A stretch of DNA of 64,000 nucleotides from Planctomycetaceae bacterium (GTDB lineage: Bacteria > Planctomycetota > Phycisphaerae > Phycisphaerales > UBA5793), in NCBI GenBank assembly GCA_040255465.1, contig JBDZVA010000001.1:130021-194020 (forward strand). The letters are read 5' to 3'. Under the pieces are notes generated by a model. The model was not told the DNA's origin. It ran no database searches and saw only the letters and a list, made by a program, of their open reading frames with translations. The position numbers and the translations under genes were made by a program. Below are positions 2,648 to 62,249 of the stretch, one piece after another; position 1 is the stretch's first letter; each line of letters opens with the position of its first letter.

Positions 2648-2822
2648 AGTCTTTCCCTCTCTTACCAACGCACATTCAAAACGCGCCGCCCGAACGGTCG
2701 AATCCACCTACAACGGCCGCCACACAGCATACCGCATCTGCGGCAGGGCATTGGCAAGAACCCCCCCGCAACCTGCTTTGTTCCCACAACCCCGCCACTC
2801 GCCCTGAAAGCCTCGCGGACCA

Positions 2823-3785: not shown

Positions 3786-4120
3786 GCGAAGAGAGATGCC
3801 CGGACGCCGACGCCTCCAGACCGATCATTGTACCACCTCGCTTGTCAGTCCACGGCGCCCTGGCTCCTCGCAGGGTTTTGATGCCTGCGGCGTGCTCCCG
3901 GTCGCGTCGCACCAATATCATCCGTAGTCGGGCTGCCGCCTCACGACCATCCCCCAGGACAATGGGAACGCCGCTCGCAATGTCTTTTCTTTCACCCACA
4001 ATTCGCGATCACCGCCGACGGGCCACCACACTCGTGCGCCCGGATCGCCTGGCGCACCCAGCCCCGGGCCAGACGTCGCTGAACCCTCGACAGCGCGATG
4101 AAATCATCTCCCGCCTCAAG

Positions 4121-9388: not shown

Positions 9389-9577
9389 TGGAAAACGCTT
9401 TCCTAAAACGGAAGCCTGCTGATTTGAAAACTCCACCACCGACCGCGCCAAACCACGAAGTTGATTCATCCCTTGGCCAGTGTCGGTCCAACCAGACAAA
9501 GGTAATTCTTCTTCGCGTGTTTGTCAACCCCTAATCCACCGAATCGACGCACTTCTGTGAGACATGCAAAAGTTTTT

Positions 9578-20918: not shown

Positions 20919-21899
20919 CTATCGTTCCGCGCGAGCCAGAAACGTTTCGAATTCTTCGAGTGTGCTGAAGGTGAAAATGATCTGGCCGCTGGTTCTCGAC
21001 TTGGACTGGCGGATTCTTGCCGGCAGTCGGAGCGATTTTGAAAGTCGCTCTTCAAGATCAGTGATGTGCTGCGCTTTGCGCGACTGCTGTGCCGCAGGCG
21101 GACGGCCCGACTGTGCGTTGGCGAAGGACTCGACCTCGCGCTCAAGGCGGCGCACCGTCCAATTGTGTCGCAACGTCGACTTGGCAAGAGTGCGGCGGAT
21201 GCGCGAGTCGGCGATCGCCAGCAGCGCCTTGGCATGGCCCTGGCTGAGACGCCCCGAGCGGACGTCGGCCTTGGTGTCATCATCTAAGTTATTGAGACGT
21301 ATGGTGTTAGCGACGCTTGAGCGATCAAGGCCCACCCGTTCGGCGATCTGGGACTGAGTCAGGCCGAACTGAGTGATGAGTGATTGGAACGATTCAGCCC
21401 GCTCGATGGGGTCGAGATCTTCGCGCTGGAGATTTTCGACGACGGCCCATTCGGCCGCCTGTGAGTCGTCGATGTCGCGGACAAGCGCTGGAAGTACTTG
21501 TATACCAGCGAGTTGCGCTGCTCGCCACCGCCGTTCGCCCGCGATGAGTTCATAGCCGCTGCCCCCCTTTCGTGCCCGGACGAGGATCGGCTGCATCACA
21601 CCCGACTGGCGGATGGATGCCGCGAGTGCTTCGAGTCGGGCCGGGTCGATCTGCTTGCGAGGCTGGAAGCGATTGGGCTGAATCTCCGCGGCAGGGATGT
21701 TGCGGAGATCCTGTGGGGCCCGGGCAACCGGTGCCGTGGAGCCGCTTTCAGCCGCTGGGGCCTCTCTTGAAGGCATTGGATGAGGGGCTGTTGGCTGCTC
21801 GCCAGGCTCCGCGGCGACCGCAACGGGCTGGCTCATGAGGCTCGCAAGCCCCCTGCCGAGACGCTTGCGGGTTCGCCCGCCGGTGTTTGCTTCGACCAT
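20919..21899 (-). CDS. parB: chromosome partitioning protein ParB
   Basis: RLGRGLASLM N-terminal box, GERRWRAAQLAG box II, HTH region. Start placed at MVEANTGG, because the ORF-track start 21977 would abut parS. Confidence 0.9.
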   Translation of the reverse strand: MVEANTGGRTRKRLGRGLASLMSQPVAVAAEPGEQPTAPHPMPSREAPAAESGSTAPVARAPQDLRNIPAAEIQPNRFQPRKQIDPARLEALAASIRQSGVMQPILVRARKGGSGYELIAGERRWRAAQLAGIQVLPALVRDIDDSQAAEWAVVENLQREDLDPIERAESFQSLITQFGLTQSQIAERVGLDRSSVANTIRLNNLDDDTKADVRSGRLSQGHAKALLAIADSRIRRTLAKSTLRHNWTVRRLEREVESFANAQSGRPPAAQQSRKAQHITDLEERLSKSLRLPARIRQSKSRTSGQIIFTFSTLEEFETFLARAER

Positions 21900-21979
21900 C
21901 CCTGGTCCTTTCGAAGTGAGTTCGAGTGAACTGGTAACCAGCTGGCCGAATGTAGCGCGTCCAGACGAGACAGGCAAGA

Positions 21980-23226: not shown

Positions 23227-24477
23227 GTGCATCATCAACATTCGATCGTCTGGGCGGAGGTTCTGGGAGTTCTCTTCGCCACTCAATGTGTTGCGTGTGC
23301 CGGACCGCCGGATGAACTGGTCGTCAGTGGCTTCACCTCAGACAGTCTGGTGGGGTTTGATGCATGGACGGGGGAATTGCGCGGCCAATACGCCGGATCA
23401 ACTGACTTGAACGGGACGCTCGGCGTCGTGCTCGGACCCGATGGGCTTCTCTACGTCGCCAGTGAAGATTCCAACATGGTGCTGCGATTTGATCCCGCGA
23501 TGCGCACTTTCGTCGATCGATTTGTGTGGGACGATCCCGCAACGCCGCAACTCGACGAGACTGGCGGACTGCTCGGCCCGGCGTCCGTGCTCTTTGGCGC
23601 TGACGGTAATCTATACGTCAGCAGTTTCGACGGCGATGCCGTGTTGCGCTACGACGGTCAGACAGGCGCATTCATCGATGTGTTCGTGACGCAAGGCAGC
23701 GGGGGACTCAATGGTCCTGATGCCGGCATGGCCTGGGGACCGGATGGCAACCTTTACATTCCTGCATACTACTCGAATGCAATCTACCGCTATGACGGCA
23801 CAACCGGCGCTTCGCTCGGCGCGCTGGTCTCTCCCTTGCAGAATGGCCTGCGACGGCCGCGACATCTCATCTTTCGCGATGGATTGGTGTACGTCTCGTG
23901 TGAAGCGACGCACAAAGTCATGCGATTCGATGCGACAAGCGGCGTCTACATCGACGACTTTGTCACCCCAGGAAGTGGCGGGCTTGTGGAACCGACCGGC
24001 ATCGGATTCGGTCCCGATGGCCACTTCTATGTCGGCAGCGTGGTCGACAACAAGGTGCGAAGATACGAGGGAGCAACTGGAGCATTCCTTGATGAGTTTG
24101 CCCTTGGCGGAAACGCCGGGCTGCAGGCAGTGACGTTTATCTACTTCCTGCCCAACAACACCTTTCGCCTCGGACCGCCTCGACCCGGACTCGCCGGACA
24201 GTCGAATGAACTGATCGCAACCAGCGCGCCGTTGGTCGAGCGCGTCGTGTTCGTCTACGGATGGCGCAGCGGGTCAACGGAGGCGCCGGGCTGTCCGGGC
24301 GTCTTGTTCGACATGGCCAGGCCGACGCTTGTCGGCACCGCCGAATCAGATGCACACGGCGTCGTGCGTCTCGTGCGTTCGGTTCCCGGGGCAGCGCGCG
24401 GTCGGCGCGTGTTGCTTCAGGCGTGGGCGCGGCGGTCATGCCTGATGAGCGAGGTGTTGCCGTTTACTTTTGAGTAG
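23227..24477 (+). CDS. NHL-repeat beta-propeller lipoprotein
   Basis: GTG start preceded by GGAGGGAG. Signal/lipobox ATQCVAC. 5-6 NHL-like blades (GPDGLLYVAS, GADGNLYVSS, GPDGNLYIPA, GPDGHFYVGS). Shared C-terminal module. Confidence 0.85.
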   Translation: MHHQHSIVWAEVLGVLFATQCVACAGPPDELVVSGFTSDSLVGFDAWTGELRGQYAGSTDLNGTLGVVLGPDGLLYVASEDSNMVLRFDPAMRTFVDRFVWDDPATPQLDETGGLLGPASVLFGADGNLYVSSFDGDAVLRYDGQTGAFIDVFVTQGSGGLNGPDAGMAWGPDGNLYIPAYYSNAIYRYDGTTGASLGALVSPLQNGLRRPRHLIFRDGLVYVSCEATHKVMRFDATSGVYIDDFVTPGSGGLVEPTGIGFGPDGHFYVGSVVDNKVRRYEGATGAFLDEFALGGNAGLQAVTFIYFLPNNTFRLGPPRPGLAGQSNELIATSAPLVERVVFVYGWRSGSTEAPGCPGVLFDMARPTLVGTAESDAHGVVRLVRSVPGAARGRRVLLQAWARRSCLMSEVLPFTFE

Positions 24478-38206: not shown

Positions 38207-40657
38207 TCACTTCCCCGCTCGACGCTGCATGCCATACTCGATGAGGTTGCCCATCAGGTTTGTCGCGTCCGTGGTGGTGTAGCCGCTGACGCCCCAGCAG
38301 GACTGTCCCAGCAGCGCGTTGCTCAGATCCTCGCGGCTGACGAAAACGCGCAGATGCTCCGTGTCGCTGCCCTCGTGCAGCGCCCGCAAGCGCGGCCTCG
38401 GCTCGCGACCGCCAAAACGCTCCAGTGAATAGAGCCGATACGAGACGTTGGTGCAATCCACGCCGTGATCGAGCATCGCGCCGCTGATCACCGCGTGCCG
38501 CGTTGGCCGGCGGAAGCGCGAGCCCGGCATGAACGCTTCGACGAACTCTTCGGCACTTCGGCCAAAAGTCGAGACGCCGCCCACGTTCTCAAACAGCACC
38601 GTGCCGCCTCGCTCGATATAGGTCTTGACCGCTGCAGCCTCGCGTTCGCTGAACGTGTGTTCCGCCGTTCCGCGCACGATGAGCAGCGCGGCTTGCGCCG
38701 CCGGCGAATCATCAACCGATTCGAGCGGCACATCAACAATCGTCACATCCATGTCCCGACTCGTGCGCAACCGCAGCGCGAGCAGTTCGTCGGCTGCGGG
38801 CTCAGGATTCCAGTTGCCGCCGTACACGGCCCGGGCGATCTTCACTGCCGTGAACCCCGGCGCACCCGTCGGCAGCACGCCATCGATCACCTGTGTCTCA
38901 TCGAGCAGCAGCTTGCGATTGAGGCGCGGCGTCGTGAGGCCTCGCTCCGAGGCGTAGTAGTACACGTTGCTGAGCATGCTGAAATCATCGCGGCGGCGAT
39001 TGACGTCATTGAGCTGGAGGGCTTCGCCGAAGTCTGTCTTCGGGCAATGGATCATCAACTCTCGTACGCCATTGCTCAGGCCCATCAAGCCCGCCGGCTT
39101 CTCCACTGGCGCGGACAACGTGTACACGAAGTGATCATCCGCCAGTGGCCGCCACTCATACTGCGGATACATCTTGCGCCCCAGCGTCTGCACTGCGTCG
39201 GTGAAACGCGGGTTGCCCGCGTCGGCGTTACTGACCACCAGCCCGCCCAGATCGATGTATCGCTTGATCCGCTCGAGGGTGGTGAAACGCGGCTTGTCGC
39301 CCTTGGCCCGGCGCTGCAGCTCAGCGTCATATTCGCTCACATACGCAAAGGCCTCGTGACTGGCAATGTAGACCATCGGCCCGTCAAACCACTCTTCGAG
39401 CGGCGTGTTGATGTTGAGGATCTGCCAGCTCAAACGCTGCTCGGTCTCCTGCCCGATCCACGAGGCGAGGTGAGCCGCATCGCGCGGCCGATTGTTCCAC
39501 GCAAAAGACTGATCGCGCAGCTTGCTCACGATGATCGGTACGCGGCCGTGCGCGAGAAACATCAGTCCGAACGACATCTGCACCACCGGCGTCTCGACCA
39601 TGCCCGTCGAACCGATGTTTGCCTTGGCGGTGAAGCCGGCCAGTTGGCCCGTCTCGGGATCAACAATCGGATCACACAGCCGATTGATGATCTCGGCCGC
39701 AGAAGCGCGGAACCAGTCGTGCCGGCCGAAGCGCTTGTACCCGCTCGCCAGTCCGACACGCTCCATGCCGTAGAGGTAGTAGAACAGATACGTCTGGTCC
39801 GCTTCGAACACCAGACCAGGATGGCGCTGGGCCGTGAAATTCTGGTCCACCCAGTCCAGGCCGCGCTCAATGGCCTTCTGCTGATCCGTGTCCTTAAGGC
39901 CGGGCTTCACGAACTCACGGGCGTGCAGGAAATCCTGCGTGACGAACAGGCACGTCAGCCCCGCTGCGGTCATCGAACCGCGCGCTTCGCCGAACTGCGG
40001 CCGATAGTTCCACCCCCCGTCCGCCAGTTGCGTGCGAAGGTAATGGTCTTCGATGCGCTTCCAGATCGGCTTGGGAATCTCGTGGTTGCGCTTGGCCGCT
40101 TCCCACAGGCCCAGCAGGCCGTATTGCGTCAGCGAATTGTCATACCCCGACTCCATCGGGATCTCGGTGTACGCCCACGATCCGCTTTCATAGCCGTACG
40201 CACGCAGCAGCCAGTCGCGATCATCTTCGAGCAGTTTGCCGAACCGCTCGGGCAGCAGGGCCCAGATGTGCGCCCGCAGCGAGCGCACATACGTGTAGTC
40301 AGGCTTCTGGCTGCGCAGAAAGTCGATCGGGGCCTGAAGGCGCGGCTCCTGGTAACTCTGTCCCGACGCCAGCAGGGCGTACACGGCAATCGTCGTCTGC
40401 CCCGTGATGTGCGTGAGCAGGTGCATCAGCGCCGGATCGCCCGAGCCGAACTCCCACGTGCCCGCGTTGTTCTGCCGGGCGTACAGGCCGTCGCGGATGG
40501 CGTCGATGGCCCAGCCGATCTCGACGTCAGTCAGATCCTCAGGCGTAACGATGACCGGGTCCGGCGGTCGCTGGGCGATCACGCGCGGGGTCGCGGCCGA
40601 TGCAATGACCAGGGCGAGCAAGGCGAGCAGCAGGGTTGGGGTGGAGATTCGTGGCAT
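38207..40657 (-). CDS. large secreted protein: prenyltransferase/terpenoid-cyclase-like alpha-toroid repeats plus DUF4159-like C-terminal domain
   Basis: Start MPRISTPTLLLALLALVIASAATPRVIAQ (cat 40655-40657) inside ORF 38207..40921. Repeats with GTWEFGSG, SGSWAY, DGGWNY. Domain names are tentative. Confidence 0.7.
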   Translation of the reverse strand: MPRISTPTLLLALLALVIASAATPRVIAQRPPDPVIVTPEDLTDVEIGWAIDAIRDGLYARQNNAGTWEFGSGDPALMHLLTHITGQTTIAVYALLASGQSYQEPRLQAPIDFLRSQKPDYTYVRSLRAHIWALLPERFGKLLEDDRDWLLRAYGYESGSWAYTEIPMESGYDNSLTQYGLLGLWEAAKRNHEIPKPIWKRIEDHYLRTQLADGGWNYRPQFGEARGSMTAAGLTCLFVTQDFLHAREFVKPGLKDTDQQKAIERGLDWVDQNFTAQRHPGLVFEADQTYLFYYLYGMERVGLASGYKRFGRHDWFRASAAEIINRLCDPIVDPETGQLAGFTAKANIGSTGMVETPVVQMSFGLMFLAHGRVPIIVSKLRDQSFAWNNRPRDAAHLASWIGQETEQRLSWQILNINTPLEEWFDGPMVYIASHEAFAYVSEYDAELQRRAKGDKPRFTTLERIKRYIDLGGLVVSNADAGNPRFTDAVQTLGRKMYPQYEWRPLADDHFVYTLSAPVEKPAGLMGLSNGVRELMIHCPKTDFGEALQLNDVNRRRDDFSMLSNVYYYASERGLTTPRLNRKLLLDETQVIDGVLPTGAPGFTAVKIARAVYGGNWNPEPAADELLALRLRTSRDMDVTIVDVPLESVDDSPAAQAALLIVRGTAEHTFSEREAAAVKTYIERGGTVLFENVGGVSTFGRSAEEFVEAFMPGSRFRRPTRHAVISGAMLDHGVDCTNVSYRLYSLERFGGREPRPRLRALHEGSDTEHLRVFVSREDLSNALLGQSCWGVSGYTTTDATNLMGNLIEYGMQRRAGK

Positions 40658-40847
40658 GGCTCTATTGAAGGATGGTAACACACTCTGCCGCTGGCGGTTT
40701 TGATCGTAATTGACGGCCCCAGCCGGCCCGTGGCGTCGAGTTACGCCGGGTTCCGCCGCGCCGTGCGTCCTCAAAAACGGGTCGCCATCGCCACGAAGGC
40801 TCGGGTGGCCGGCGAGACACGGAACCCGACTTGCGAAGGACAAGACC

Positions 40848-41864
40848 ATGCACACGACGGGAAACAAGCGGCGAATCACCGCCGACAAGCCACTGGCGCT
40901 CGTGCTGATCGTCGTTGCCACTCAGCTGGCCACCGCCTGCGTCCGCGAACCCGTCGCTGTTTCAAGCGATGAGATCTCGCACAGCGAAGAGGTCTACTTC
41001 GGACCGCGCTTCCGCAAAGACCGCGTCACGGTCTATCGCTTCCGCGCCGACAATATGAGTGTGCAGACTCAGGCTGGCCAGAGCGTGGTTGACGCCAACT
41101 ACACTGAGTCGATCATGCGCTTCACGGTCAGCGATGTGCACGAAGACGGCTCAGCCGATCTGATGATGACCTACGACCGCCTGATCACCTCGGGGGAGTC
41201 CGCGTTCGGCGGCACATACGCCTTCGACTCCACGCAGGAATCAGCCGACCCGGAGACGGATGCAAAGATCGTCGATGTACTGCGCAAACTCACCAACTCG
41301 ACGGTGAAGTTCCGGGCTGACGCGTTGGGCAATGTCGACCCGGAAAGCGTGGTCGGTACGCAGGACGCGTGCGAGGTCATGCAGGAACTCATGGCATTGC
41401 AGGCTCGCGTCGCTGAGTTCAACAGTGCCGGTCTCGCCAAACTCTTCGAAAGCACCTGGCGCGTCGCCGATGAAACGTACACGCGCGACATCGGCAAGCC
41501 CTGGCAGGACGTGAAGACGACGCCAGTCGAAGGACTCGGCTACTGGACGTTTACGAGCAACTACCAGACGCTCGACCGTGATCCGCGCCACATCGTGCTC
41601 GGAGTGAAACTGGTCATGTCGCTTGAATTCCAGCCGCCCGAGGAGTTCATTCCCGGCATGCTCAAAGTGCTGGAAACCGAGTTCGAGATGATCAAGGGCG
41701 ACTTCCGCTACGTCTGGGACCGCGAGAACTTCGAACTCGTCGAGCGCACCGGCGAGCTTGAATTCAATTGGAGAATCATGCAGGAAGGGTTGTTCCAGGA
41801 CGAGGTCGTCCGAACCGATCAGCACCAGCATGTCACGACATCACTGCAGCGAATCGACGAGTAG
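40848..41864 (+). CDS. hypothetical lipoprotein
   Basis: Start MHTTGNKRRITADKPLALVLIVVATQLATAC (ATG 40848) inside ORF 40710..41864. Confidence 0.6.
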   Translation: MHTTGNKRRITADKPLALVLIVVATQLATACVREPVAVSSDEISHSEEVYFGPRFRKDRVTVYRFRADNMSVQTQAGQSVVDANYTESIMRFTVSDVHEDGSADLMMTYDRLITSGESAFGGTYAFDSTQESADPETDAKIVDVLRKLTNSTVKFRADALGNVDPESVVGTQDACEVMQELMALQARVAEFNSAGLAKLFESTWRVADETYTRDIGKPWQDVKTTPVEGLGYWTFTSNYQTLDRDPRHIVLGVKLVMSLEFQPPEEFIPGMLKVLETEFEMIKGDFRYVWDRENFELVERTGELEFNWRIMQEGLFQDEVVRTDQHQHVTTSLQRIDE

Positions 41865-51186: not shown

Positions 51187-51927
51187 ATGAACACCAAAGG
51201 TATCACTGCGCTCATCGCGATCGGAACCATCGCCGCACTCGGCGCGCATGCGGCGACTGCAGATGTAATTCGGGACGGTGGTTTTGAACTGGGCACGGCT
51301 CCCGGCCTGCTCCTGCCCACCAGCATGGGACTCTGGTCGGGCGATATCACCGAAGTTGTCACCGCACAGGATGACATCATCCCCTTCGAAGGCGCCCAGA
51401 TGATTCATTTCATCTACTCGACGCCGCGCGGCCCCCACGGCGGCATCATCGGCTCCGAACTCTGGCAGATCATCGACATCAGCGGCTATCGCAGCATGAT
51501 CGATCGCGGCAACGCCGTTGCCACCGCCGAGGGCTGGTTCAACCGCATCGGCGGCGAAGATCCCAACATTGACACGCAATTCTCCATCGTCCTCTCCGCC
51601 TATTCCGGCTCCGCTTCCGACTTTCCCACGATGTGGAAGCACACCGAACTGGCGCTGAGCGAAGGCTTCGCGTACACCGACGGCGACACGCGATCGTGGG
51701 AGATGGCCACCACTTCGATGACCATCCCGATCGACGCCGACTTCATCGTCTATCGCATCACCGCAACCGAAGACGTCTTCGACGATGCGTTCGGAACCGA
51801 GTTCCACGGTCACTACGGCGATGCATTTACGTTGAGCATTACCGAAGTACCCGCCCCCGCCAGCCTCGCCATGATGCTCGGCGGCGCCCTGACCATCGGC
51901 GCCAGCCGCCGACGTCGGCACGCGTAG
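51187..51927 (+). CDS. secreted protein with PEP-CTERM-type C-terminal sorting tail
   Basis: Signal peptide MNTKGITALIAIGTIAALGAHAA. C-terminus VPAPASLAMMLGGALTIGASRRRRHA, i.e. Pro motif, TM helix and Arg cluster. Confidence 0.8.
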   Translation: MNTKGITALIAIGTIAALGAHAATADVIRDGGFELGTAPGLLLPTSMGLWSGDITEVVTAQDDIIPFEGAQMIHFIYSTPRGPHGGIIGSELWQIIDISGYRSMIDRGNAVATAEGWFNRIGGEDPNIDTQFSIVLSAYSGSASDFPTMWKHTELALSEGFAYTDGDTRSWEMATTSMTIPIDADFIVYRITATEDVFDDAFGTEFHGHYGDAFTLSITEVPAPASLAMMLGGALTIGASRRRRHA

Positions 51928-52025: not shown

Positions 52026-53591
52026 TTACGGATGTCGCACGACGTTGGTAAGATTGCAGCCGGGCAGATCATGCATCTGCATCCAGCCGAGACAGGCGCC
52101 GGACTGCGATTGTCCACTGCGCGAGCCGCTGCCGTTGGATCCTGAAGAGAAGGTGTTGACCAGCTGAATTGATCGACTGCCCAGGCCGAGCACGGTTCCC
52201 TGACATGGACCGAAGGGGATGACGAACGAACCGGTGTTCTTGGCGTAGATGAGCGCAACCGTCGAATTCGGCGTCGCGCCATCCCACGACACAGTGACGC
52301 GGCCGGGGCAGATGCCCGTGGCGGTCAGCGTAAACGTCGGCGGCGGGGGCGAAGCGTTCATCGCGTTCTTGAGGTTGACGCGCCCGTAGCCGAACACGTT
52401 ATCAACACCAGGGGCGCCGATATCAGTGCAGGTGCTCTTGATCAGATCTTCAACTTGGTCCGGAGTGATGCCGGGGTTGTTCGAGAAGATCATCGCGCCC
52501 ACGCCGGCCGCGATCGGGCAGGCCATGCTGGTGCCACTGAGAATCGCATAGCCGTTGTTGGCGTTGTTGTAGGTGGAGAGGATGTCCTGTCCCGGTGCGA
52601 AGAGATCGACGTAGTTTCCGTAGTTCGAGAACGAAGCGCGGCCGTCGGATGTCGTCGAGGCGCCGACGATGATCACGTCGTCCGCATCGCGATTGGGGCT
52701 GGAGAGGTTCAGGCCGCTGTTGCCGGCTGCCCAGAAGAGCAGGCCGCCGAGACTCTTGACAGTTGTCCCCGTTGTGCGAACAGAAGGACTGGTTGAACCC
52801 GAATAGCTGACACTTGAGCACTTGTCGCCGCTCTGAGCGGCCTTGATTGCCGCCTGCGTGAGCGTGTTGAAGTTGGCGCCGCCGTTGCTGGCCTCGCTCA
52901 CGCGGAGGATGCGGTTCCCAAGGCTCCAGCCCACACCGAGACCGCCGCGGGAGTTATTGCCATTGGCTGCGGCGCAGCCGCTGGTGTGCGTGCCGTGGCC
53001 ATTGATGTCCTGGACGTTTCCGCCTTGACTCTCCCACTGAAGTCGCACGGCGTTCCAGCCGTCGGCGCGGTATTGCTGGAACTCTTCATGAGCGGTGCGC
53101 AGGCCGGTGTCGCAGATGCCCACGCGGGTCGCGGGATTGCCGGTATGCACATCCCAGCCTTCGTAGCTCTGCATCTTCGCGTGCTGCCACTGGCTCGCAT
53201 GTGCCGGGTCGTTGGGCGTGAGTTGCGGATAGCAGATCCAATCAGGCTGAACATATTCGAAATGGCCTGACGCCATCAGGGCCTGCGCCGCTTCATTCTC
53301 CCCGAGTCCCTCGGGAAGCTGGAAGACGTACTCGTCGTTGGGATCGATGTACACATTGAGGACAAAATGATAGAGGATCAGGTCTCGACCAGCGGCATTC
53401 CTGAGTGCATCATGCTGCACGGGGCGGGCGATCATTGCACCGCTGAATTCGAGATAGCCGGGCTGCTCAAAGAACGGCTCGATCTGATTCCCATGGCCGG
53501 GATTCTGGGCGGCCGCCATCGGCGCCACCAACAGCGAGCCGGCCATGGCGAACATCGCTGCCGCTCCGGTGCGATTCATCTTCATAGACAT
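52026..53591 (-). CDS. secreted S8 (subtilisin-like) serine peptidase with novel C-terminal module
   Basis: Start MSMKMNRTGAAAMFAMAGSLLVAPMAAAQ. Catalytic triad GICDTG / HGTHTSG / GTSMACP. ORF track 52026..53687. Confidence 0.9.
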   Translation of the reverse strand: MSMKMNRTGAAAMFAMAGSLLVAPMAAAQNPGHGNQIEPFFEQPGYLEFSGAMIARPVQHDALRNAAGRDLILYHFVLNVYIDPNDEYVFQLPEGLGENEAAQALMASGHFEYVQPDWICYPQLTPNDPAHASQWQHAKMQSYEGWDVHTGNPATRVGICDTGLRTAHEEFQQYRADGWNAVRLQWESQGGNVQDINGHGTHTSGCAAANGNNSRGGLGVGWSLGNRILRVSEASNGGANFNTLTQAAIKAAQSGDKCSSVSYSGSTSPSVRTTGTTVKSLGGLLFWAAGNSGLNLSSPNRDADDVIIVGASTTSDGRASFSNYGNYVDLFAPGQDILSTYNNANNGYAILSGTSMACPIAAGVGAMIFSNNPGITPDQVEDLIKSTCTDIGAPGVDNVFGYGRVNLKNAMNASPPPPTFTLTATGICPGRVTVSWDGATPNSTVALIYAKNTGSFVIPFGPCQGTVLGLGSRSIQLVNTFSSGSNGSGSRSGQSQSGACLGWMQMHDLPGCNLTNVVRHP

Positions 53592-54039
53592 GCCTGTTTC
53601 CTTCTTTCTGGTTGCTGATCCGCCGCAACTCGCCACACGCGATTGAGCGGGACCAAGCGATCTCTCCAGACTCTCAGAGGACTCCATGTCCGCGCATGGA
53701 TCGCCCTCGCAGCCGTGTCGGGCCCGCCTCTCGAAGCATGAAAAGCGACGCGTTGATCAGCACGGCAACAGAACGCCGCACACTCACCCCACGATGTCCC
53801 GCCACGGACGCGGCTTTGATGCCGCGTGGGCGAGTATACTCGAAATCATTCGCGCCGCGGCTTGTTTTGTCATTAATTTGGGTGATTCTGGCGAACTTGG
53901 CAAGCGCGCCGCGCGATGCCTTGCCAAGCGGATCTTCCGATACCCTTAGCATGTGCGAGGCTGTTTCCTGCCGCGCCCGCGTCCGGGTTGACGCTGCCGA
54001 GGCTTCGAAACTCGCGATCAGCAGGGAGAAAAGAAACAA

Positions 54040-54073
54040 CCCACCCTCGCACTCGAGGGTGGGCTGTTTTTTC
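54040..54073. terminator. bidirectional rho-independent terminator
   Basis: CCCACCCTCG-CACT-CGAGGGTGGG, followed by CTGTTTTTT on the plus strand and TTGTTTCTTTTC on the minus strand. Located 23 nt downstream of the S8 gene stop. Confidence 0.75.
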
Positions 54074-54095
54074 AGCGCGTCGAACTGCTCCGTGA

Positions 54096-56702
54096 TTACG
54101 GATGCTGCGCGACGTTGGTCAGATTGCAGCCGGGCAGATCATGCATCTGCAACCAGCCGTGGCAGGCGCCGGACTGCGATTGTCCACTGCGCGAGCCGCT
54201 GCCGTTGGATCCCGACGGGAAGGTCGAGACGAGGCGAATCGCCTGGCTGCCCAGGCCAAGGACCGTTCCCTGGCACGGGCCGTACGGAATGACAAACGAG
54301 CCGGTGTTCCGCGCGTAGATGAGCGCGACCGTCGAACTCGGCGTCGCGTTCTCCCAGCGCACAGTGACCAGGCCGGGGCAGGTGCCCGTCACGGTCAGTG
54401 TGAAGGGCAGTGTGGTCGCGCGGTAGCCCAGGTCCATGCGCGTCGCGGTCGTGGGCGACGTCGTATTGCCGAAACGAGTCGAGTTGTAGGCGCGAGACGC
54501 CTGCGAGCTGCCTGCGGCGCGCGAGACGCTGACGTCGATTCCGGACGTGTTGACCGAGACGATCTCGACGAGCAGATTGCCCAGGTTCGGGTTGTAGGTA
54601 AACGTGTTGCGGCCAAAGTCAAAGAACATGCTGTGCTCAATTGAGCCATTGGTCATGTAGGTGCGCTTGGTGGCGCTGCCGGTGTACAGCGTCGTCATCG
54701 CGCCGTTCCGATTGTTGGCCAGATTCGAATCCAATCCGCCCTGGTTCGTGTCCACGCCGGGGATCTTGTTGGTGTATCCCATCCGAATGGTGATATTCGA
54801 TGTCGACGTGTCGCCGATGATGCCCGTGTTGGGCGCGAAGCCGATTGACTCCATCGTTACGGGACCGCTGAAGAGGTTCTTATTGAAGACCTGGTGCATC
54901 GTGCAGGTGTCGCCGTTGCCGAAGGGAACGAAGTTGTACGCCGCATGCGCGCTGGTGGGCAGAATGCCGCCCGGATTGACGCGATAGTGGACCGCACCAT
55001 TGAAGACGCGGTTGGTAAAGCCGCTGCCGAAGGGGTAGTTCAGTCCGAATCCGCGGTTTTCCCACCGAAGGTTGGCATCGGTATACGCCGAAAGCGGCCC
55101 GTTGGTGTAGCGAATCAGTCCGCCGTCCGTACGGGTGACGTAGATGCCGACCGTCTGGTTGGGCGCAATGGTCAGTCCGCCGATGTTAATCGGCGTGGGT
55201 TCGCCCTGCGGATTGGTTGGAGCCGCACTCTGAGATCCAAGCAGGGTCCACGCGCCGGCGTTGGCCTCCTTGCCGACGTACGAGGTCTTATTGGTGACGT
55301 AGTAGACCTCGAGATTGGCAGCGCCGCTGGTGAGATTATTGAAGTCGAAAGCCGTGATCGTCACGCCGACGGAATTCACGCAGGTGATGTCAAACATCGC
55401 GCCGGCCAGGCCGTTGCCGCCTTGCCACGTTGAACCGAGACTGCGCCGTGCGGTGCTCGCCAGCGCTTTGGCGGCGTTGACGCGCCCGTAGCCGAAGGTG
55501 TTGGAGTTGCCCACATTGTCGCACGTGCCCTTCATGAGGTCTTCGATGTCGTCAGGCGTGAACGAGGGATTCTGCGACCAGATCAGCGCCGCAAGTCCGG
55601 TAGCGCACGGAGCCGCCATGCTCGTACCGCTCATCAGGACATAGGCATCGTCACCCGAGTTGGACAGCGACAGGATGTTGCTGCCGGGAGCAAACAGGTC
55701 GACATACAGGCCGTAGTTGGAGAAGCTCGACTTGCCGTCCGTCTCGTTGGTGGATCCAACCACCATGACGTCGTCGGCATCGCGGTTCGAGCCGTTCATC
55801 GCCTGGTTGCTGTTGCCCGCCGCCCAGAAGACGAGAGAGCCGTTGTTCTTGATGACGGTGGCAGCCGCGCGAACCGCGGCATTGTCCACGCCGCTGTACG
55901 AGACGTTGATCGCCCGGTCACCCTGCTCCGAGGAAGTGATGGCCGCGTGATTCAGCACGTCGATCGACGAGTTTCCGTTCGAGAGGTTGCTGACCTTGAG
56001 AATGCGGTGCGCATAGTTCCAGCCGACGCCGGTGACGCCACGGGCGTTGTTGCCTCGGGCGGCGGCGATGCCGGTCGTGTGCGTGCCGTGGCCGTGGATG
56101 TCGTTGATATTTCCGCCGTTGGATTCCCACACCTCATCGACGGCGTTGTAGCCTTCCTTCCGGAGCACGGGAAGATCAAGGTGTGTCGTGCGCAGGCCGG
56201 TATCGCAGATGCCGACCGTGATGCCGTTGAATCCCGTGTTGTAGTTCCAGGCGGTAGTCGCCTGGATCTTGGTCATGTTCCACTGTTCGCCAAAGCGAGT
56301 GTCGTTGGGAGTGGCGACAGGATGGCAGATCCAGTTGGGCTCGACGAATTCAAAGAGCCCGGTGTTCATCAGCGTCTGGGCGACGGTGTTCTCCGTCTGG
56401 CCCTCGGGCACAGCGATGACATACCAGTCCACTGCGGGTCGGTACTTAAGGATGGTGTAGTTCGCTTCCAGGTGCGCCTTGGCCGCTTCGGACTTCATGA
56501 CCTGGCCTTGGACGGGCCGGGCGATCATCTGGCCGGAAAACTCGAGTTCGCCAGGCTGCTCGACGAAGACTCGGACCGCCTTGGTTTCGCCCGAGCCGTT
56601 ATCAGCCATCGCCCATGGCGACAACAACACGGTCGTGGCGAGCACCATTGCTGCGCCACTCAGTTTCAATTGCCTCAACATTTGCATCTCCTTGTTCTGC
56701 AA
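54096..56702 (-). CDS. secreted S8 serine peptidase with large inserted beta-rich region and the same C-terminal module
   Basis: Signal peptide. GICDTG / HGTHTTG / GTSMAAP. About 340 aa of extra sequence lie between the catalytic domain and the C-terminal module. Confidence 0.9.
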   Translation of the reverse strand: MQNKEMQMLRQLKLSGAAMVLATTVLLSPWAMADNGSGETKAVRVFVEQPGELEFSGQMIARPVQGQVMKSEAAKAHLEANYTILKYRPAVDWYVIAVPEGQTENTVAQTLMNTGLFEFVEPNWICHPVATPNDTRFGEQWNMTKIQATTAWNYNTGFNGITVGICDTGLRTTHLDLPVLRKEGYNAVDEVWESNGGNINDIHGHGTHTTGIAAARGNNARGVTGVGWNYAHRILKVSNLSNGNSSIDVLNHAAITSSEQGDRAINVSYSGVDNAAVRAAATVIKNNGSLVFWAAGNSNQAMNGSNRDADDVMVVGSTNETDGKSSFSNYGLYVDLFAPGSNILSLSNSGDDAYVLMSGTSMAAPCATGLAALIWSQNPSFTPDDIEDLMKGTCDNVGNSNTFGYGRVNAAKALASTARRSLGSTWQGGNGLAGAMFDITCVNSVGVTITAFDFNNLTSGAANLEVYYVTNKTSYVGKEANAGAWTLLGSQSAAPTNPQGEPTPINIGGLTIAPNQTVGIYVTRTDGGLIRYTNGPLSAYTDANLRWENRGFGLNYPFGSGFTNRVFNGAVHYRVNPGGILPTSAHAAYNFVPFGNGDTCTMHQVFNKNLFSGPVTMESIGFAPNTGIIGDTSTSNITIRMGYTNKIPGVDTNQGGLDSNLANNRNGAMTTLYTGSATKRTYMTNGSIEHSMFFDFGRNTFTYNPNLGNLLVEIVSVNTSGIDVSVSRAAGSSQASRAYNSTRFGNTTSPTTATRMDLGYRATTLPFTLTVTGTCPGLVTVRWENATPSSTVALIYARNTGSFVIPYGPCQGTVLGLGSQAIRLVSTFPSGSNGSGSRSGQSQSGACHGWLQMHDLPGCNLTNVAQHP

Positions 56703-57106
56703 TTACTAAAGACGCATCGCGGCACCACGCGCACCGCCGACGCGTCGATCATCCACAGCCACAGTGCAAGCGGGTCGAGCAAAACATCTCGCTCCGAGCG
56801 CGCAAAGACCGCGCACACGCGCCGAGAAAACTCAGAACAGCCGCTTCCGGCTCAATCTTGGAGCCGATGTCACTACATTGATGTTCGACCTGGAACCCCA
56901 GTCCCACCAACCGGGCACGATGATCATCCGGGGACGCAGATGAGCATCTGAGGCGACAGTATATCGCTCTCCCGCGAGCTGTTGATCGTTGTGCAATCGC
57001 AATTGGAGCAAATGAGGTCATTCCATGACTGGATTCGCGCCGCGATCACCCCGGTAGGGGATGAAATGACAATTGCCGCACCGGCCGCGACTTGGCCGCC
57101 ACTGGG

Positions 57107-57115
57107 TTATCCACA
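57107..57115 (+). promoter_or_regulatory. perfect DnaA box TTATCCACA
   Basis: Lies in the 1.15-kb gene-poor interval 56703-57849 with four further near-matches in the same orientation. Confidence 0.5.
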
Positions 57116-57849
57116 ATTTGGGCAGTTCGCGGTCTGCAGCGCCATCCACACCAGCGCCAAAGAGTTGTCTCGGCGTGCGCGAGGCTGACGCACCGACGCC
57201 GCAAGCGGCCGAACAAGCGAATCTCTACCGGCCCGCCCACGAGCGAGTCATTCTTGAGCGAGCCCAATCCGACGACTCAAGAAACTCCGGTGACCCGCCG
57301 GCTCGCCGGTGAGCTCGGCCCGTCCGCGAGTTCCCCACAACAGGATCTTCAGCCGCGCGCTCGGCCGTGTGACCGGCCGCTGACTCAGGCCGACCGGACT
57401 CCCGGATCAGCGCCCCAGTCCCGGTGCACCACGCCGTGTGAATGAGTGGGAAACCGTAGAAAAACGAATCATCAGCCAGTTCAGCGAACTCGGCTTGGAG
57501 GCAAAGCCGGCCGATTCCGTCGCGACGCAGCCCACGACCAGACTGATCCTCTGCGGTTCGAGCCGGAAGTCCCGTCCAGCACATCGCCCGGAAGACCCAT
57601 TTGACTCTGCCATTGCTGAGTTTGACTTCCCAGCCGGGGATGCGGTCAGCGAGCCGAGGGTCCGATCATCCGTGGACTTGTCCCCAGGTTGTCCACAGTA
57701 TTTCGGGGCTCCTTCCCTGCAAGGTTGCACCCCGGACCGGGCGAACGCCGATGACCTGCCAATTGCCGACTCGAGTGCAACCCGCGTCGCGCTGCTGCGA
57801 ATCGAGTACAATACCCTTCAATACCCCGATTTGGATTGAGAGAGCGTTG

Positions 57850-59805
57850 ATGAACTCCCCGATTCTGCCGACGATTCAGTCCCCCGCCGATCTGCGAAAA
57901 CTCAGCATCGAGCAGCTCGAAGCCCTCGCCGCCGAGGTTCGCAAGACCATCTACGACCAGGTCTCCAAGACCGGCGGGCACCTCGCGCCCAATCTCGGCG
58001 TCGTCGAGCTCACCATCGCGTTGCACTACGTCTTCGACTTCGGCTCCGACCGGCTGCTCTTTGACGTCGGCCACCAGTGCTATCCCCACAAACTCCTCAC
58101 CGGCCGCCTGCCCCTGCTGAGCAAACTTCGCACGCGCGAGGGCATGGCCGGCTTCCCCGAGCCGCGCGAAAGCGCCTACGACCTCTTCTCAGTTGGACAC
58201 GCCGGCACCGGCATCTCCACCGCCATCGGTATGGCGCGCGGCGACAGCATCAACGGCGAAGCCTTCGACCCCGAAACCAATCCCACCGGCCGCCGCGTCG
58301 TCACCATCATCGGCGATGCCTCCATCGTCAATGGCGTCGCGATGGAAGGCCTCAACAACGCCGGCACGCTCAAGCGCCAGTTCCTCGTCGTCCTCAACGA
58401 CAACGGCATGAGCATCGCCAAGCCCCAGGGCGCCATTGCGGCCTACTTCGACCGCGTTCGCACCAGTCGCACCTATCGCCAGATGAAGCGCGCCGCCAAG
58501 GACGTCGTCTCCTATCTGCCCGGCGGATCGATCATCGGAGAGATGTACCACCGCACCGGCGAGATGATGAAGGCCGCCATCGCCGAGGACGCCTGGTTCG
58601 AGAAATTCGGCCTGCTCACCGTCGGCCCCGTCGACGGCCACGACATGCGCTCGCTCATCGAGATGCTCATCGAAGTGCGCAACTTCGACCGCCCGATGGT
58701 GCTTCACGTCCACACTATTAAAGGTAAGGGCTACGAACACTGCGAGGGCGACGCGACGACCTTCCACTCGCCCAAACCATTCGTCGTGCAGGGCTGCCGC
58801 GTGGAACTCAAGTCCAGCGGCCGCTCCTTCACCAGCGCCTTCGGCGACGCGATGGTCGATCTCATGGAGCGCGATGACCAGGTCGTCTGCGCCACCGCGG
58901 CCATGCCCGACGGCACCGGTGTGGTCAAAGTGCTGCCCAAGTTCCCCACGCGCGCCTGGGACACCGGCATCTGCGAAAGCCACGCCATGGACATGATGGC
59001 GGGTCTGGCCAAGACGGGTCTCAAGCCCTTCTTCGCCGTCTACTCCACTTTCGTCCAGCGCGCCTTCGACCAGATCTTCCAGGAAGTATCGCTGCAGGGA
59101 CTGCCCGTGCGTGTATGCCTCGATCGCGCCGGCCTGGTGGGCGGCGACGGCGCCGTGCACCACGGCTTCTGCGACATCAGCATTCTCCGCGTCTTCCCCA
59201 AGGCGGCACTGCTCGCCGCCATCGACGAGCCCAGCCTCCGCGCCGGCCTCGAGTTCATGCGCAACTACGACGCCGGCCTCAGTGTCATCCGCTACCCGCG
59301 CGACAGCGTCAGCGATCGCTTTGCCAGTAAGGAATGTCCACCATTCGAACTTGGCAAAGCGCGTGCCCTCAAGACCGAGGAGAAACCCGACATCGCGCTG
59401 TTCGCCTACGGCGTCATGGCCATGAACGCGATGGAAGCCGCTGAGCAACTCAACGGCGACTATCGCGTCAACGTCTACGACGCCCGCTTCGCCAAGCCCG
59501 TCGACATCGAACTGCTCACCGACCTCATCCAGCGCGGCGTGCCGATTCTCACCCTCGAAGATCACGCCCTCACCGGCGGCTTTGGCGCCTGCGTGCTCGA
59601 CGCCTGCCACGCCGCCGGCCTGCCGACCAGCGGCATCAAGAGCCTCGGCATCCCCGAGCGCTGGATCTATCAGGACAGCCGCGCCAAGCAACTCGCCGAA
59701 GTCGGCCTCGACGCCCCATCCATCGCCCGCACCGTCCGCGAATGGCTCGACACCGCGCCGGTCGTGCCGCAGGTGGTGAAGGCGGGCGTAAAGACGAGCG
59801 TTTGA
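57850..59805 (+). CDS. dxs: 1-deoxy-D-xylulose-5-phosphate synthase
   Basis: Start MNSPILPTIQSPADLRKL (ATG 57850) inside ORF 57601..59805. GGHLAPNLGVVELTIALHYVF, and the TPP motif GDASIVNGVAMEGLNNAG. Confidence 0.93.
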   Translation: MNSPILPTIQSPADLRKLSIEQLEALAAEVRKTIYDQVSKTGGHLAPNLGVVELTIALHYVFDFGSDRLLFDVGHQCYPHKLLTGRLPLLSKLRTREGMAGFPEPRESAYDLFSVGHAGTGISTAIGMARGDSINGEAFDPETNPTGRRVVTIIGDASIVNGVAMEGLNNAGTLKRQFLVVLNDNGMSIAKPQGAIAAYFDRVRTSRTYRQMKRAAKDVVSYLPGGSIIGEMYHRTGEMMKAAIAEDAWFEKFGLLTVGPVDGHDMRSLIEMLIEVRNFDRPMVLHVHTIKGKGYEHCEGDATTFHSPKPFVVQGCRVELKSSGRSFTSAFGDAMVDLMERDDQVVCATAAMPDGTGVVKVLPKFPTRAWDTGICESHAMDMMAGLAKTGLKPFFAVYSTFVQRAFDQIFQEVSLQGLPVRVCLDRAGLVGGDGAVHHGFCDISILRVFPKAALLAAIDEPSLRAGLEFMRNYDAGLSVIRYPRDSVSDRFASKECPPFELGKARALKTEEKPDIALFAYGVMAMNAMEAAEQLNGDYRVNVYDARFAKPVDIELLTDLIQRGVPILTLEDHALTGGFGACVLDACHAAGLPTSGIKSLGIPERWIYQDSRAKQLAEVGLDAPSIARTVREWLDTAPVVPQVVKAGVKTSV

Positions 59806-59853
59806 GTTTCAAGCCGACACGAGTCGGTGCTCCAGAACAATGTAACCACTACG

Positions 59854-59881
59854 CCGCGGGTGAAAGCCCGCGGTTTTTGTT
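59854..59881 (+). terminator. rho-independent terminator of dxs
   Basis: CCGCGGG-TGAAAG-CCCGCGG followed by TTTTTGTT. Confidence 0.8.
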
Positions 59882-60116
59882 CATCCCAGACTGCGATGAA
59901 TCTCATGCGCGGCACGCAGACGGCCGAGTGAAGCCGCGAAATGGCGTCGCGTTCGTACGTTGCTGCCCGATTGAATCGTCCGGACAAGCATCCGACCCTG
60001 ATTCCTCAAGCCACCTCTCACCGCGTGCACCCTCTTCCCCCGGGGTTCCAGTAGAATGAAACTGACCGCCCTTCCCGGATGCAGGAAAGGAAGGCCGAAC
60101 AAGCAGGGAGGTTCCT

Positions 60117-62249
60117 ATGCGCACAGCGTGTGTGAGAATGCTCGCATTAGTGTTCGTTGCTGGCCTGCTGATGACAGCCACCAACTCAACGAACGCACAG
60201 GACAATTGCGCGCAGTGGTCGATGGTCAATGTGACCGGGCCTTGGGCGGAAACAGGAACCGCGATAGCCTACGACAGCGCTCGCGATGTCACTGTTCTCT
60301 TCGGCGGCTTCAGGTGGGTCGAGAACTCAGGTGAGACCTGGGAGTGGAACGGCTCAGCCTGGTCGCTCGTCTCGCAGACGGGTCCGAGCCCGCGCGGCCA
60401 TCACGCAATGGTGTATGACAGTAATCGCGGCGTTACAGTCTTGTTTGGCGGCTCCGACCAGCAGCAACGGATGGGTGATACGTGGGAATGGAATGGCGTC
60501 GAGTGGAGACTCGCGTCGCAATCGGGTCCGAGTCCGCGCTCCCTGCATGCGATGGCCTTCGACAGCAACCGCGGCGTGACCGTGCTCTTTGGCGGTTGGA
60601 ATGGCTCCCTTACTGACACGTGGGAGTGGGATGGAAACCAATGGACTCAAGTCGCCAACACGGGTCCGAGTTATCGGGAAGGTCATGCGATGGCGTTTGA
60701 CCAGGCGCGCGGCGTGACCGTGCTCTTTGGCGGCAAGAGCGTAGGATTCCAAGGCGATACGTGGGAATGGGATGGGCAGTCTTGGTCACTCGTTTCCGAG
60801 ACGGGTCCGGTTGGTCGTGAGCGCTCGGCCATGGCCTATGACTCTGTTCGCGGAGTGACCGTTCTCATGGGCGGCGCGCACGAAGAGTCTTGGGGATGGA
60901 CCGTAGGCACCGACACGTGGGAATGGGATGGCGAACAATGGAGCATGCGGAGTCTGAGTGGTGGTTTGGGCCCACGCTGGATTCACAGCATGGCGTTCGA
61001 CAGCGCCCGTGGCTTGGCAGTCGTATTCGGTGGAGAAGGGGAGTATTTCAACACCCACAATGACACCTGGGCTTGGGATGGCGAGCGATGGCGCGTTGCC
61101 AGTTTGGGGGGTCGCAGTGAACTCGCGATGGCGTTCGATTCACAGCGAGGCGTGAGCGTCTTGTTTGGAGGCTACACGACCGGTGGCCTTACGATGGGCG
61201 ATACATGGGAATGGAGTGGTTCCGGCTGGCGTCATCGCGCGACGTCCGGCCCGAATCGCCGATCCAGCCACGCGATGGCGTACGATTCGCGCCGAGGAGT
61301 CACCGTACTGTTCGGTGGAGGTGACAATTACGCGCAGAACGACACTTGGGAGTGGGACGGCCAGAGATGGTCGCTTGTTTCCGAGGAGGGTCCCCCGCCC
61401 CTCACTTGGCATTCCATGACCTATGACAGCGCCCGCGGTGTGGTGGTGCTCTTCGGTGGAGAAGTGGGCTATCACACGTACAGCGGCGATACATGGGAGT
61501 GGGATGGCGTTGCGTGGCGATTGGCCGCGACGACTGGACCCGAGCCGCGTGCACGATGTGGACTTGCCTACGACAGCGCACGCGAAGTCACGGTTATGTA
61601 TGGCGGCTATGGCAGCAGTCGGCTGGGCGATACTTGGGAATGGGATGGTGCGAATTGGACACTCGTGTCCCAGGCTGGCCCGGACTATCTCACCGGCTTC
61701 ACAATGGCGTATGACTCCGATCGCAATGTGACGGTGCTTGTGGGTAGCACGCGCGAGGTCGACGAGACGTGGCAATGGGATGGACATGCGTGGGAACTCG
61801 CTTCGGTCGGCGCGCCGACGAGTCGATGGGAAAGCGCGATGGCTTATGACAGCGTTCGTAAGGCAATGGTGATCTTCAGCGGCACAGAATACGGCTACCG
61901 CGGCGACACCTGGGAACTCGCATTCCCCGTTGCGCCGCAACTCCAAGCGGCCACCGGCTGTCCCTACAGCGGCAACTCGACCATCACTTGGTCCTGCACA
62001 TCGCCGAACGGCACGGTAGCCGTCGTCTACGCCGCCAACACGGGAAACATGGTCATCCCGTTCGGCCGCCCATGCGCTGGCACGCAACTCGGCCTCGGCA
62101 GCCGCGCCATCCAACTCGCATTCACGGCCCACTCGGACACGCTCGGCGCCGGCGTGCGCGAAGTGACCGCACCCCGTGCCGCCTGCGGCGGCAGGATCCA
62201 ACTCATCGATCTGCAGACCTGCAGCACAAGCCCCACCGTGACGTACTAG
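60117..62249 (+). CDS. secreted Kelch-repeat beta-propeller protein with the shared C-terminal module
   Basis: SD GGGAGG upstream. Signal peptide. 11 full repeats built on GDTWEWDG..W......GP..R..HAMA[YF]DS.RGVTVLFGG. C-terminal 104 aa are homologous to the S8 tails. Confidence 0.9.
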   Translation: MRTACVRMLALVFVAGLLMTATNSTNAQDNCAQWSMVNVTGPWAETGTAIAYDSARDVTVLFGGFRWVENSGETWEWNGSAWSLVSQTGPSPRGHHAMVYDSNRGVTVLFGGSDQQQRMGDTWEWNGVEWRLASQSGPSPRSLHAMAFDSNRGVTVLFGGWNGSLTDTWEWDGNQWTQVANTGPSYREGHAMAFDQARGVTVLFGGKSVGFQGDTWEWDGQSWSLVSETGPVGRERSAMAYDSVRGVTVLMGGAHEESWGWTVGTDTWEWDGEQWSMRSLSGGLGPRWIHSMAFDSARGLAVVFGGEGEYFNTHNDTWAWDGERWRVASLGGRSELAMAFDSQRGVSVLFGGYTTGGLTMGDTWEWSGSGWRHRATSGPNRRSSHAMAYDSRRGVTVLFGGGDNYAQNDTWEWDGQRWSLVSEEGPPPLTWHSMTYDSARGVVVLFGGEVGYHTYSGDTWEWDGVAWRLAATTGPEPRARCGLAYDSAREVTVMYGGYGSSRLGDTWEWDGANWTLVSQAGPDYLTGFTMAYDSDRNVTVLVGSTREVDETWQWDGHAWELASVGAPTSRWESAMAYDSVRKAMVIFSGTEYGYRGDTWELAFPVAPQLQAATGCPYSGNSTITWSCTSPNGTVAVVYAANTGNMVIPFGRPCAGTQLGLGSRAIQLAFTAHSDTLGAGVREVTAPRAACGGRIQLIDLQTCSTSPTVTY

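Follow-up and report, generated by a model that had tools for sequence, protein, structure and literature searches.

Why should two peptidases and a beta-propeller protein, encoded within some ten kilobases, finish in the same hundred residues? This question is raised by a 64,000-nucleotide stretch of a Planctomycetaceae bacterium genome (GTDB order Phycisphaerales, UBA5793; GenBank assembly GCA_040255465.1, contig JBDZVA010000001.1, positions 130,021 to 194,020 of the forward strand), hereafter called the window in its full length. Here, two secreted S8 peptidases (S8-1 and S8-2) and a secreted Kelch propeller protein share a cysteine-bearing C-terminal module. We conclude that the module represents an undescribed, new domain family of a familiar kind, namely the C-terminal beta-sandwich accessory or targeting domains of secreted proteins, and we tentatively propose that it holds its carriers in place outside the cytoplasm. 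The coordinates of all features are listed in Table 1.

The three open reading frames (ORFs) are present as originally predicted, and their products can be aligned over the full length of the last 101-103 residues. Modules of S8-1 and S8-2 are 79-82 % identical, and those of S8-1 and the Kelch protein 46-48 %. The alignment also bears out four conserved cysteines in the three tails, to which the Kelch module adds a fifth, non-conserved Cys. By Pfam, the N-terminal parts are indeed unrelated (Peptidase_S8 in one case, Kelch in the other), and a Sec-type N-terminus can be read from the sequence of all three proteins. The S8-1 module corresponds to residues 453-553 of a 553-aa ORF for which M33 (53591) is probably the true start, giving the leader MSMKMNRTGAAAMFAMAGSLLVAPMAAAQ; S8-2 probably starts at M8 (56681), which yields a protein identical to the database protein P0010. 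A hidden Markov model (HMM) of the three tails recovered them with E-values of 1e-55 to 1e-63, and the rest of the window, in six-frame translation, gave nothing better than 0.2.

Three more window proteins, annotated here as BNR/sialidase-like, 1011-aa and NHL-repeat proteins, end in tails of 102-105 aa that show a similar pattern with zero to two Cys. These had been put forward as looser copies of the module, and the HMM built from the 4-Cys tails did not detect them in the six-frame window; the Cys-poor tails are detectable only with family-level profiles. An HMM made from the BNR and 1011-aa tails only, run against 13,135 ORFs of the window and related loci, returned a graded series of matches: Cys-free tails at E 1e-49 to 1e-14, 2-Cys tails at 1e-12 to 1e-8 (the window NHL tail at 6e-5), and 4-Cys tails at 2e-6 to 1e-4. 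In reverse, the 4-Cys HMM detects 2-Cys tails at E 1e-5 to 3e-9. Comparison of the separately aligned grades with hhalign gave probabilities of 99.7 % (0 vs 2 Cys), 99.3 % (2 vs 4), and 97.7 % (0 vs 4), to be read with the caveat that members of all grades were collected with one iterated profile. Taken together with the same predicted fold and the same structural neighbors (below), this cross-detection confirms the looser copies, and the window therefore holds six members of one superfamily.

None of the established families accounts for these tails. No model of Pfam-A (2025) or NCBIfam 20.0 fell on the module in the window proteins (E<=0.1), the module was left uncovered in 112 full-length relatives (E<=1e-3), and no model matched it in 40 domain-only sequences from all three grades at E<=10, apart from a sole PKD (PF00801) match at E 0.12 in one of the 40. 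A profile search of all Protein Data Bank (PDB) sequences produced only a chance match, PsaK at E 0.8. Models for the C-terminal domain (CTD) of T9SS (type IX secretion system), i.e., PF18962, TIGR04183, and TIGR04131, found no match in module sequences even at E<=10. Family models for PPC (PF04151), PKD, dockerin, LPXTG, and SLH likewise do not match the module, nor do those for PEP-CTERM (TIGR02595 / PF07589), and there is no hydrophobic C-terminal helix. The original prediction that the module is unassigned, and is neither T9SS-CTD, PEP-CTERM, LPXTG, nor dockerin, thus withstood both the model scans and the PDB sequence search. The names of module proteins in databases reach 'hypothetical protein' at most, and no description of the module was found in the full-text literature.

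The family is large and its host range is narrow. When 1.84 billion representative proteins were searched exhaustively with a profile, 2,353 clusters matched at E<=1e-3, and 1,410 did so at E<=1e-10; word-indexed protein searches were insensitive here, with 8 and 3 matches against the 2,353 of the exhaustive search. Among 185,579 species-representative genomes, the core motif PC[AQ]GT[VQ]LGL[GD] occurs at 83 sites in 17 assemblies. All 17 are metagenome-assembled genomes (MAGs) of uncultured organisms, and their labels are nearly all Phycisphaerales, Phycisphaerae, or Planctomycetota, with one labeled Vicinamibacteraceae (PLA1) and one labeled Alphaproteobacteria. The window modules are 86-88 % identical to those of UBA5793 and KLAP200, which are close relatives. 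Within the five best-sampled genomes, of which about 200-280 kb each were examined, distinct modules number at least 42, 34, 29, 25, and 19, many of them in arrays of tandem genes, as many as 7 within 20 kb. The PLA1 assembly (WYBR01, 'Vicinamibacteraceae bacterium PLA1', with an Acidobacteriota label) encodes at least 25 modules, at loci L006, L014, L027, L038, L042, L043, L048-L050, L056, and L060. Its taxonomic label is probably wrong, as these loci are near-duplicates of loci from the Phycisphaerae Bin_17 (e.g., L005 vs L006).

What kind of domain is this? AlphaFold models the 4-Cys module as an all-beta domain of 8 strands (pLDDT, the predicted local distance difference test, 93.1), and the Cys-free BNR tail as the same 8-strand sandwich (pLDDT 89.8). 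Foldseek searches against the PDB returned generic Ig/FN3-like matches, with best E-values of 0.016 and 0.007 for the two models, respectively. The structural comparison that the original prediction had called for thus yielded a confident fold and only weak PDB neighbors. These weak neighbors are the same for both models, which points to a generic immunoglobulin (Ig)-like sandwich; judged from the models, the fold class is an Ig-like beta-sandwich without a close solved relative. The best compact neighbors are C-1027, neocarzinostatin, and macromomycin (TM 0.47-0.61, E 0.01-0.05, 9-16 % identity). These apoproteins of the enediyne chromoproteins are Ig-like sandwiches of about 110 aa that contain two disulfides, and they are the closest compact structures to both module models. 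They differ from the module in being Streptomyces antibiotic carriers and in having no sequence-model match to it, and the resemblance is one of fold class only. Adhesin repeats of the CPE0147 type are also among the weak fold matches (TM 0.38-0.48), and Gln91 of the module is invariant. A CPE0147-type Thr-Gln intramolecular ester bond was considered and rejected, given that no His/acid is conserved and the Thr is not conserved across grades.

The cysteines follow a regular pattern. Exactly four are present in 128 of the 154 complete modules. In the superfamily alignment, the 2-Cys grade retains exactly C49 and C98 (S8-1 module numbering), and the 4-Cys grade adds C14 and C86. Since the cysteines co-vary in pairs between these grades, we infer the pairing C14-C86 and C49-C98, a sequence-based argument that supports the two disulfides originally suggested. 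This pattern, i.e., paired co-variation and four Cys in most modules, implies an oxidising, extracytoplasmic location. Conservation is strongest in a loop, IP.G.PC.GT.LGLG, and in a C-terminal segment, Q..D...C.TSNV, and the putative C49-C98 disulfide would tie one to the other. Conserved residues are mostly Gly, Pro, and Cys, and the tails finish in a beta-strand (…TSNVxxxP/E).

The module is almost always the last domain of a secreted protein. Across 80 loci, 153 of 154 module matches end 0-7 residues ahead of the stop codon. Similarly, in 153 of 154 database proteins (the best representatives plus earlier matches), the last module lies within 7 residues of the C-terminus, and in 145 within 2. 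The predicted C-terminal enrichment among relatives is therefore borne out in both sets. A crude test found a hydrophobic N-terminus in 105 of 139 proteins, and every example inspected has a textbook Sec leader. The parts in between, hereafter passengers, are highly diverse: the 294 carriers sort into 78 clusters by passenger, and 39 of these clusters have a single member. Most passengers have no Pfam domain. Recognisable ones include FG-GAP, Kelch, SBBP, and other propellers, Ig, C-type lectin, CBM96, S8 peptidases, and BNR, and many of these (FG-GAP, Kelch, C-type lectin, CBM96, Ig) are binding folds rather than enzymes.

The claim that the module is always at the extreme C-terminus holds in the window and in nearly all relatives, but it is not absolute. 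At locus L076 (9956..10894, + strand; MAG HK-STAS-MYXO-39, with the Alphaproteobacteria label), the module stands at the N-terminus, immediately behind the signal peptide, and about 199 residues without an identified domain come after it. This is the only N-terminal case found, and its MAG is the only carrier besides PLA1 outside Planctomycetota-type labels. Two or three module copies occur in 7 of the 154 database proteins, with true tandems in P0021 and P0116. The other five (P0009, P0038, P0105, P0138, and P0153) repeat a passenger-plus-module unit twice, like two adjacent array genes joined, and could be either real fusions or stop-codon or assembly errors. Finally, some proteins consist of the module only, as a signal peptide, a Pro-rich linker, and a 4-Cys module; three tandem genes encode such proteins of 147, 134, and 156 aa. 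The trio adjoins a divergently transcribed passenger-plus-module gene, and a DUF444 gene lies downstream of it.

A part of S8-2 has its homologues in the gene arrays. Residues ~580-760 of this peptidase form an insert without Pfam assignment that is 45 % identical (E 3e-47) to the complete passenger of a ~310-aa tandem-array protein (L019, 6893-7840), with further relatives in P0141 and P0088. The array passenger domain itself (…NF/YxPFGxGxxCTMHQVF…) has no Pfam match. By sequence comparison, S8-2 is an S8 peptidase fused to a whole array unit, passenger and module together.

Sequence divergence indicates that the module is the constrained part of its carriers. For the modules of S8-1 and S8-2, identity amounts to 82 % at the amino-acid level and 84 % at the nucleotide level, compared with 50 % and 64 % in the pro- and catalytic parts. 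Among 69 pairs with homologous passengers, 53 show stronger conservation in the module than in the passenger. Within one genome, modules that are 83-91 % identical can be found on passengers of 200-270 aa with 18-25 % global identity (BLAST E>=0.3). Of 174 modules, 105 have their nearest relative on a passenger without detectable homology in the preceding 300 residues, a few of these being different domain orders and not unrelated proteins. Older pairs (L019, with proportions of synonymous and nonsynonymous differences, pS and pN, of 0.60 and 0.10; the window S8 pair, pS 0.33 and pN 0.10) show purifying selection, with pN/pS ~0.16-0.3 in a codon comparison that leaves out the indel-misaligned L011 pair.

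In addition, recent exchange of module DNA between genes of one genome is seen. Two recent pairs (L007/L009 and L012/L028), on four contigs of the MAG PDA_C_MAG.101, join unrelated passengers to modules whose DNA is 93.7 % identical (pS 0.09-0.10, pN 0.05). Over the 150 nt immediately upstream, identity is at the background level of 31-41 %. High identity in the module and its drop to background upstream indicate recent gene conversion or cassette exchange that stops at the module boundary.

How might such a domain serve so many proteins? Our leading reading, held tentatively, is that the module works outside the cytoplasm as an autonomous domain, docking or retaining its carriers by binding to a shared partner particular to each genome. 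Carrier proteins would be exported by Sec, and the module would then fold by itself outside the cytoplasm, stapled in its main grade by two disulfides. The conserved loop and the C-terminal patch would together bind one partner, which may be an envelope component, a matrix component, or further copies of the module. Unrelated passengers (S8, Kelch, FG-GAP, NHL, BNR, lectin-like) would thereby be kept at one extracellular location. The single, genome-specific partner is suggested by the constraint on the modules and their homogenisation within genomes. That the module acts by itself after export, and is not a mere cargo tag, is suggested by the module-only, tandem, and N-terminal copies. Similar economies are found among SLH domains, dockerins, and cell-wall-binding repeats, in which one module likewise sits on many unrelated exoproteins of one organism, alone or repeated, and is more conserved than its passengers; this likeness suggests a common partner. 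The module is unrelated to them in fold and sequence, lacks Ca-binding dockerin repeats and SLH motifs, and belongs to hosts with a Gram-negative-type envelope. Several observations weigh against docking. The consensus contains no conserved aromatic platform or obvious binding site. When 850 non-module ORFs from 81 loci were clustered, no recurrent neighbor family appeared in more than 7 loci; a dedicated partner is not encoded locally. Homogenisation could also be a product of tandem-array recombination without functional meaning. Moreover, the strict C-terminal position, the many unrelated cargoes, and the conservation of a loop and the C-terminal strand are equally expected of a signal of the T9SS-CTD type.

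Such a signal is the main rival explanation. T9SS CTDs are compact Ig-like sandwiches of ~70-100 aa at the extreme C-terminus of Sec-exported proteins, in which one conserved-Gly loop and the C-terminal segment have been shown to matter (PMC11285876). By analogy, a lineage-specific outer-membrane machinery would recognise the folded module by its conserved loop and C-terminal strand once Sec has exported the protein, translocate or attach the cargo, and possibly cleave the module off. Size, fold class, and terminal position agree with the CTDs (Por_Secre_tail, types A/B), as does the distribution over dozens of unrelated cargoes with Sec leaders per genome, encoded by dispersed genes with no local partner. 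The invariant-Gly loop and the C-terminal segment are where the module, too, is conserved, and homogenisation within genomes fits co-evolution with one machinery; incompatibility of CTDs between species has been reported for T9SS (PMC11285876). However, not only do the CTD sequence models fail to match, but the top 50 Foldseek matches of either model include no structure of a T9SS CTD, and the module differs in its 8 strands and the two disulfides we infer. Its hosts are Phycisphaerales, within the Planctomycetota; T9SS, by contrast, has been described as restricted to Bacteroidota (PMC11285876). No conserved linker or cleavage motif was found upstream of the module, and the T9SS rule of one copy, at the C-terminus only, is broken by the multi-copy proteins, the N-terminal copy, and the module-only genes, which are unexpected of a pure export tag. 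We consider an export signal somewhat unlikely on balance. A related proposal, which we regard as unlikely, is that an undescribed, Phycisphaerales-specific outer-membrane pathway for export or attachment recognises its cargo by the module, which would be a counterpart of the T9SS CTD that arose independently in a phylum lacking T9SS. The 0-, 2-, and 4-Cys grades would then be cargo classes, and gene conversion would keep the tags matched to one machinery.

Two further roles fit the spectrum of passengers and the evolutionary pattern less well. The module may target a substrate, like a carbohydrate-binding module (CBM) or a PPC/PKD-like domain, by binding an environmental polymer, for instance an insoluble protein or a glycan of algae or extracellular polymeric substance (EPS). 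Secreted enzymes commonly bear beta-sandwich accessory modules at the C-terminus, hydrolases are among the carriers (two S8 peptidases, a BNR sialidase-like protein, and a weak GH43-like match), CBMs and lectins typically occur as tandem and standalone copies too, and CBM56 and beta-glucan-recognition domains are among the weak fold matches. Those fold matches are non-significant (E >= 0.007), though, and the module presents no evident aromatic platform; most passengers are non-enzymatic propellers, lectin-like, or without assignment, and neither the homogenisation nor the narrow host range would be predicted for a widespread substrate. Substrate targeting is, in our estimation, improbable. 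A passive part, as a stabilising cap, a spacer, or a PPC-like folding or latency domain without a specific partner, is the poorest prospect of those weighed here. A generic Ig-like sandwich could fill it, conservation of Gly, Pro, and Cys can be purely structural, and the module was first noticed on proteases, where PPC-type domains occur: PPC and PKD domains are small C-terminal beta-sandwiches on S8-type peptidases, occasionally in tandem. The module, by contrast, is found mostly on non-protease passengers, of which there are at least 78 types, has no PPC match, and exists in a standalone secreted form. Its conservation above that of the catalytic domains, together with exchange at the DNA level, argues for a selected function of its own. 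The original prediction had offered a sorting or anchoring tag and a common surface-binding module; this was the right pair of options, which the evidence does not decisively separate, and it leans to binding or docking.

Table 1. Module-bearing proteins and associated features. Positions refer to the window, except for the module-only genes, which refer to locus L082.
Feature	Position	Strand	Basis and remarks
S8-1, secreted subtilase (S8 peptidase) with C-terminal module	52026..53687	-	ORF; PF00082 2.5e-38, residues 187-435
4-Cys module of S8-1, 101 aa, TLTATGICPG...NLTNVVRHP	52029..52331	-	alignment, HMM
S8-2, secreted subtilase with Pfam-less insert and C-terminal module	54096..56702	-	ORF, Pfam Peptidase_S8
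4-Cys module of S8-2, 101 aa	54099..54401	-	alignment, HMM
S8-2 segment homologous to entire passenger of small array proteins	54429..54965	-	sequence comparison
Secreted Kelch beta-propeller protein with C-terminal module	60117..62249	+	PF24681 1.5e-37, Kelch_3, Kelch_4
4-Cys module of Kelch protein, 103 aa	61938..62246	+	alignment, HMM
BNR/sialidase-like protein	1058..2707	-	Cys-free module at C-terminus, 1061..1366 (-)
1011-aa protein	10967..14002	-	Cys-free module at C-terminus, 10970..11281 (-)
NHL-repeat protein	23227..24477	+	2-Cys module (PGCPG...C.MSE...FTFE) at C-terminus, 24160..24474 (+)
Small secreted PEP-CTERM protein, ending VPAPASLAMMLGGALTIGASRRRRHA	51187..51927	+	TIGR02595 18.6 bits, cut-off 16
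Module-only tandem genes, all ending TSNVxQIL	2457..3947	+	L082, ENA ERZ15185977; also L083, L084

The surroundings of the module genes in the window are varied. A PEP-CTERM-type neighbor had been noted next to the S8 peptidases, and the TIGR02595 score confirms it; the PF07589 score of 15.9 bits is under the Pfam cut-off of 20.7. This protein is not a member of the module family, and its motif is a VPAP variant (…EVPAPASLAMMLGGALTIGASRRRRHA). PEP-CTERM resembles the module in being a C-terminal feature of many secreted proteins, and here both are present in the same genome. It differs in being ~25 aa long, with a motif, a transmembrane helix, and a basic tail, in contrast to a 100-aa soluble folded domain without a hydrophobic tail. 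Two C-terminal devices, PEP-CTERM and the Ig-like module, therefore stand side by side in adjacent secreted-protein genes.

The six module-bearing exoprotein genes are scattered among housekeeping genes, which encode DnaA, ParB, a DinG-like helicase, RmuC, Ffh, Dxs, a ClC channel, and ADH. Genes dnaA (7904..9499, - strand) and parB (20919..21977, - strand) lie within 13 kb of one another, with the DinG-like helicase gene and rmuC between them, and the window possibly lies near the replication origin of the chromosome. A 904-aa protein (38207..40921, - strand) has a C-terminal DUF4159 (1.9e-19) and a long N-terminal part without assignment; the overlapping 737-aa ORF of the other strand is probably a shadow ORF due to high GC.

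Planctomycetota, and especially the Phycisphaerae among them, abound as polymer degraders in marine and engineered systems. How their secreted proteins are placed on or beyond the unusual planctomycete envelope is largely unknown, and the module is a lead to it. It marks a large, formerly unannotated set of exoproteins, at least 2,353 clusters with tens of genes per genome, and at the least it merits a Pfam or NCBIfam entry. The HMM, the confident structural model, and the putative disulfide map offer a single handle with which to predict the surface proteome of uncultured Phycisphaerales, and they also allow a phyletic-profile hunt for the partner or machinery. A secretion or attachment machine as partner would mean a new protein-sorting system; with an envelope ligand instead, the module would serve as a natural display or anchoring tag of this lineage.

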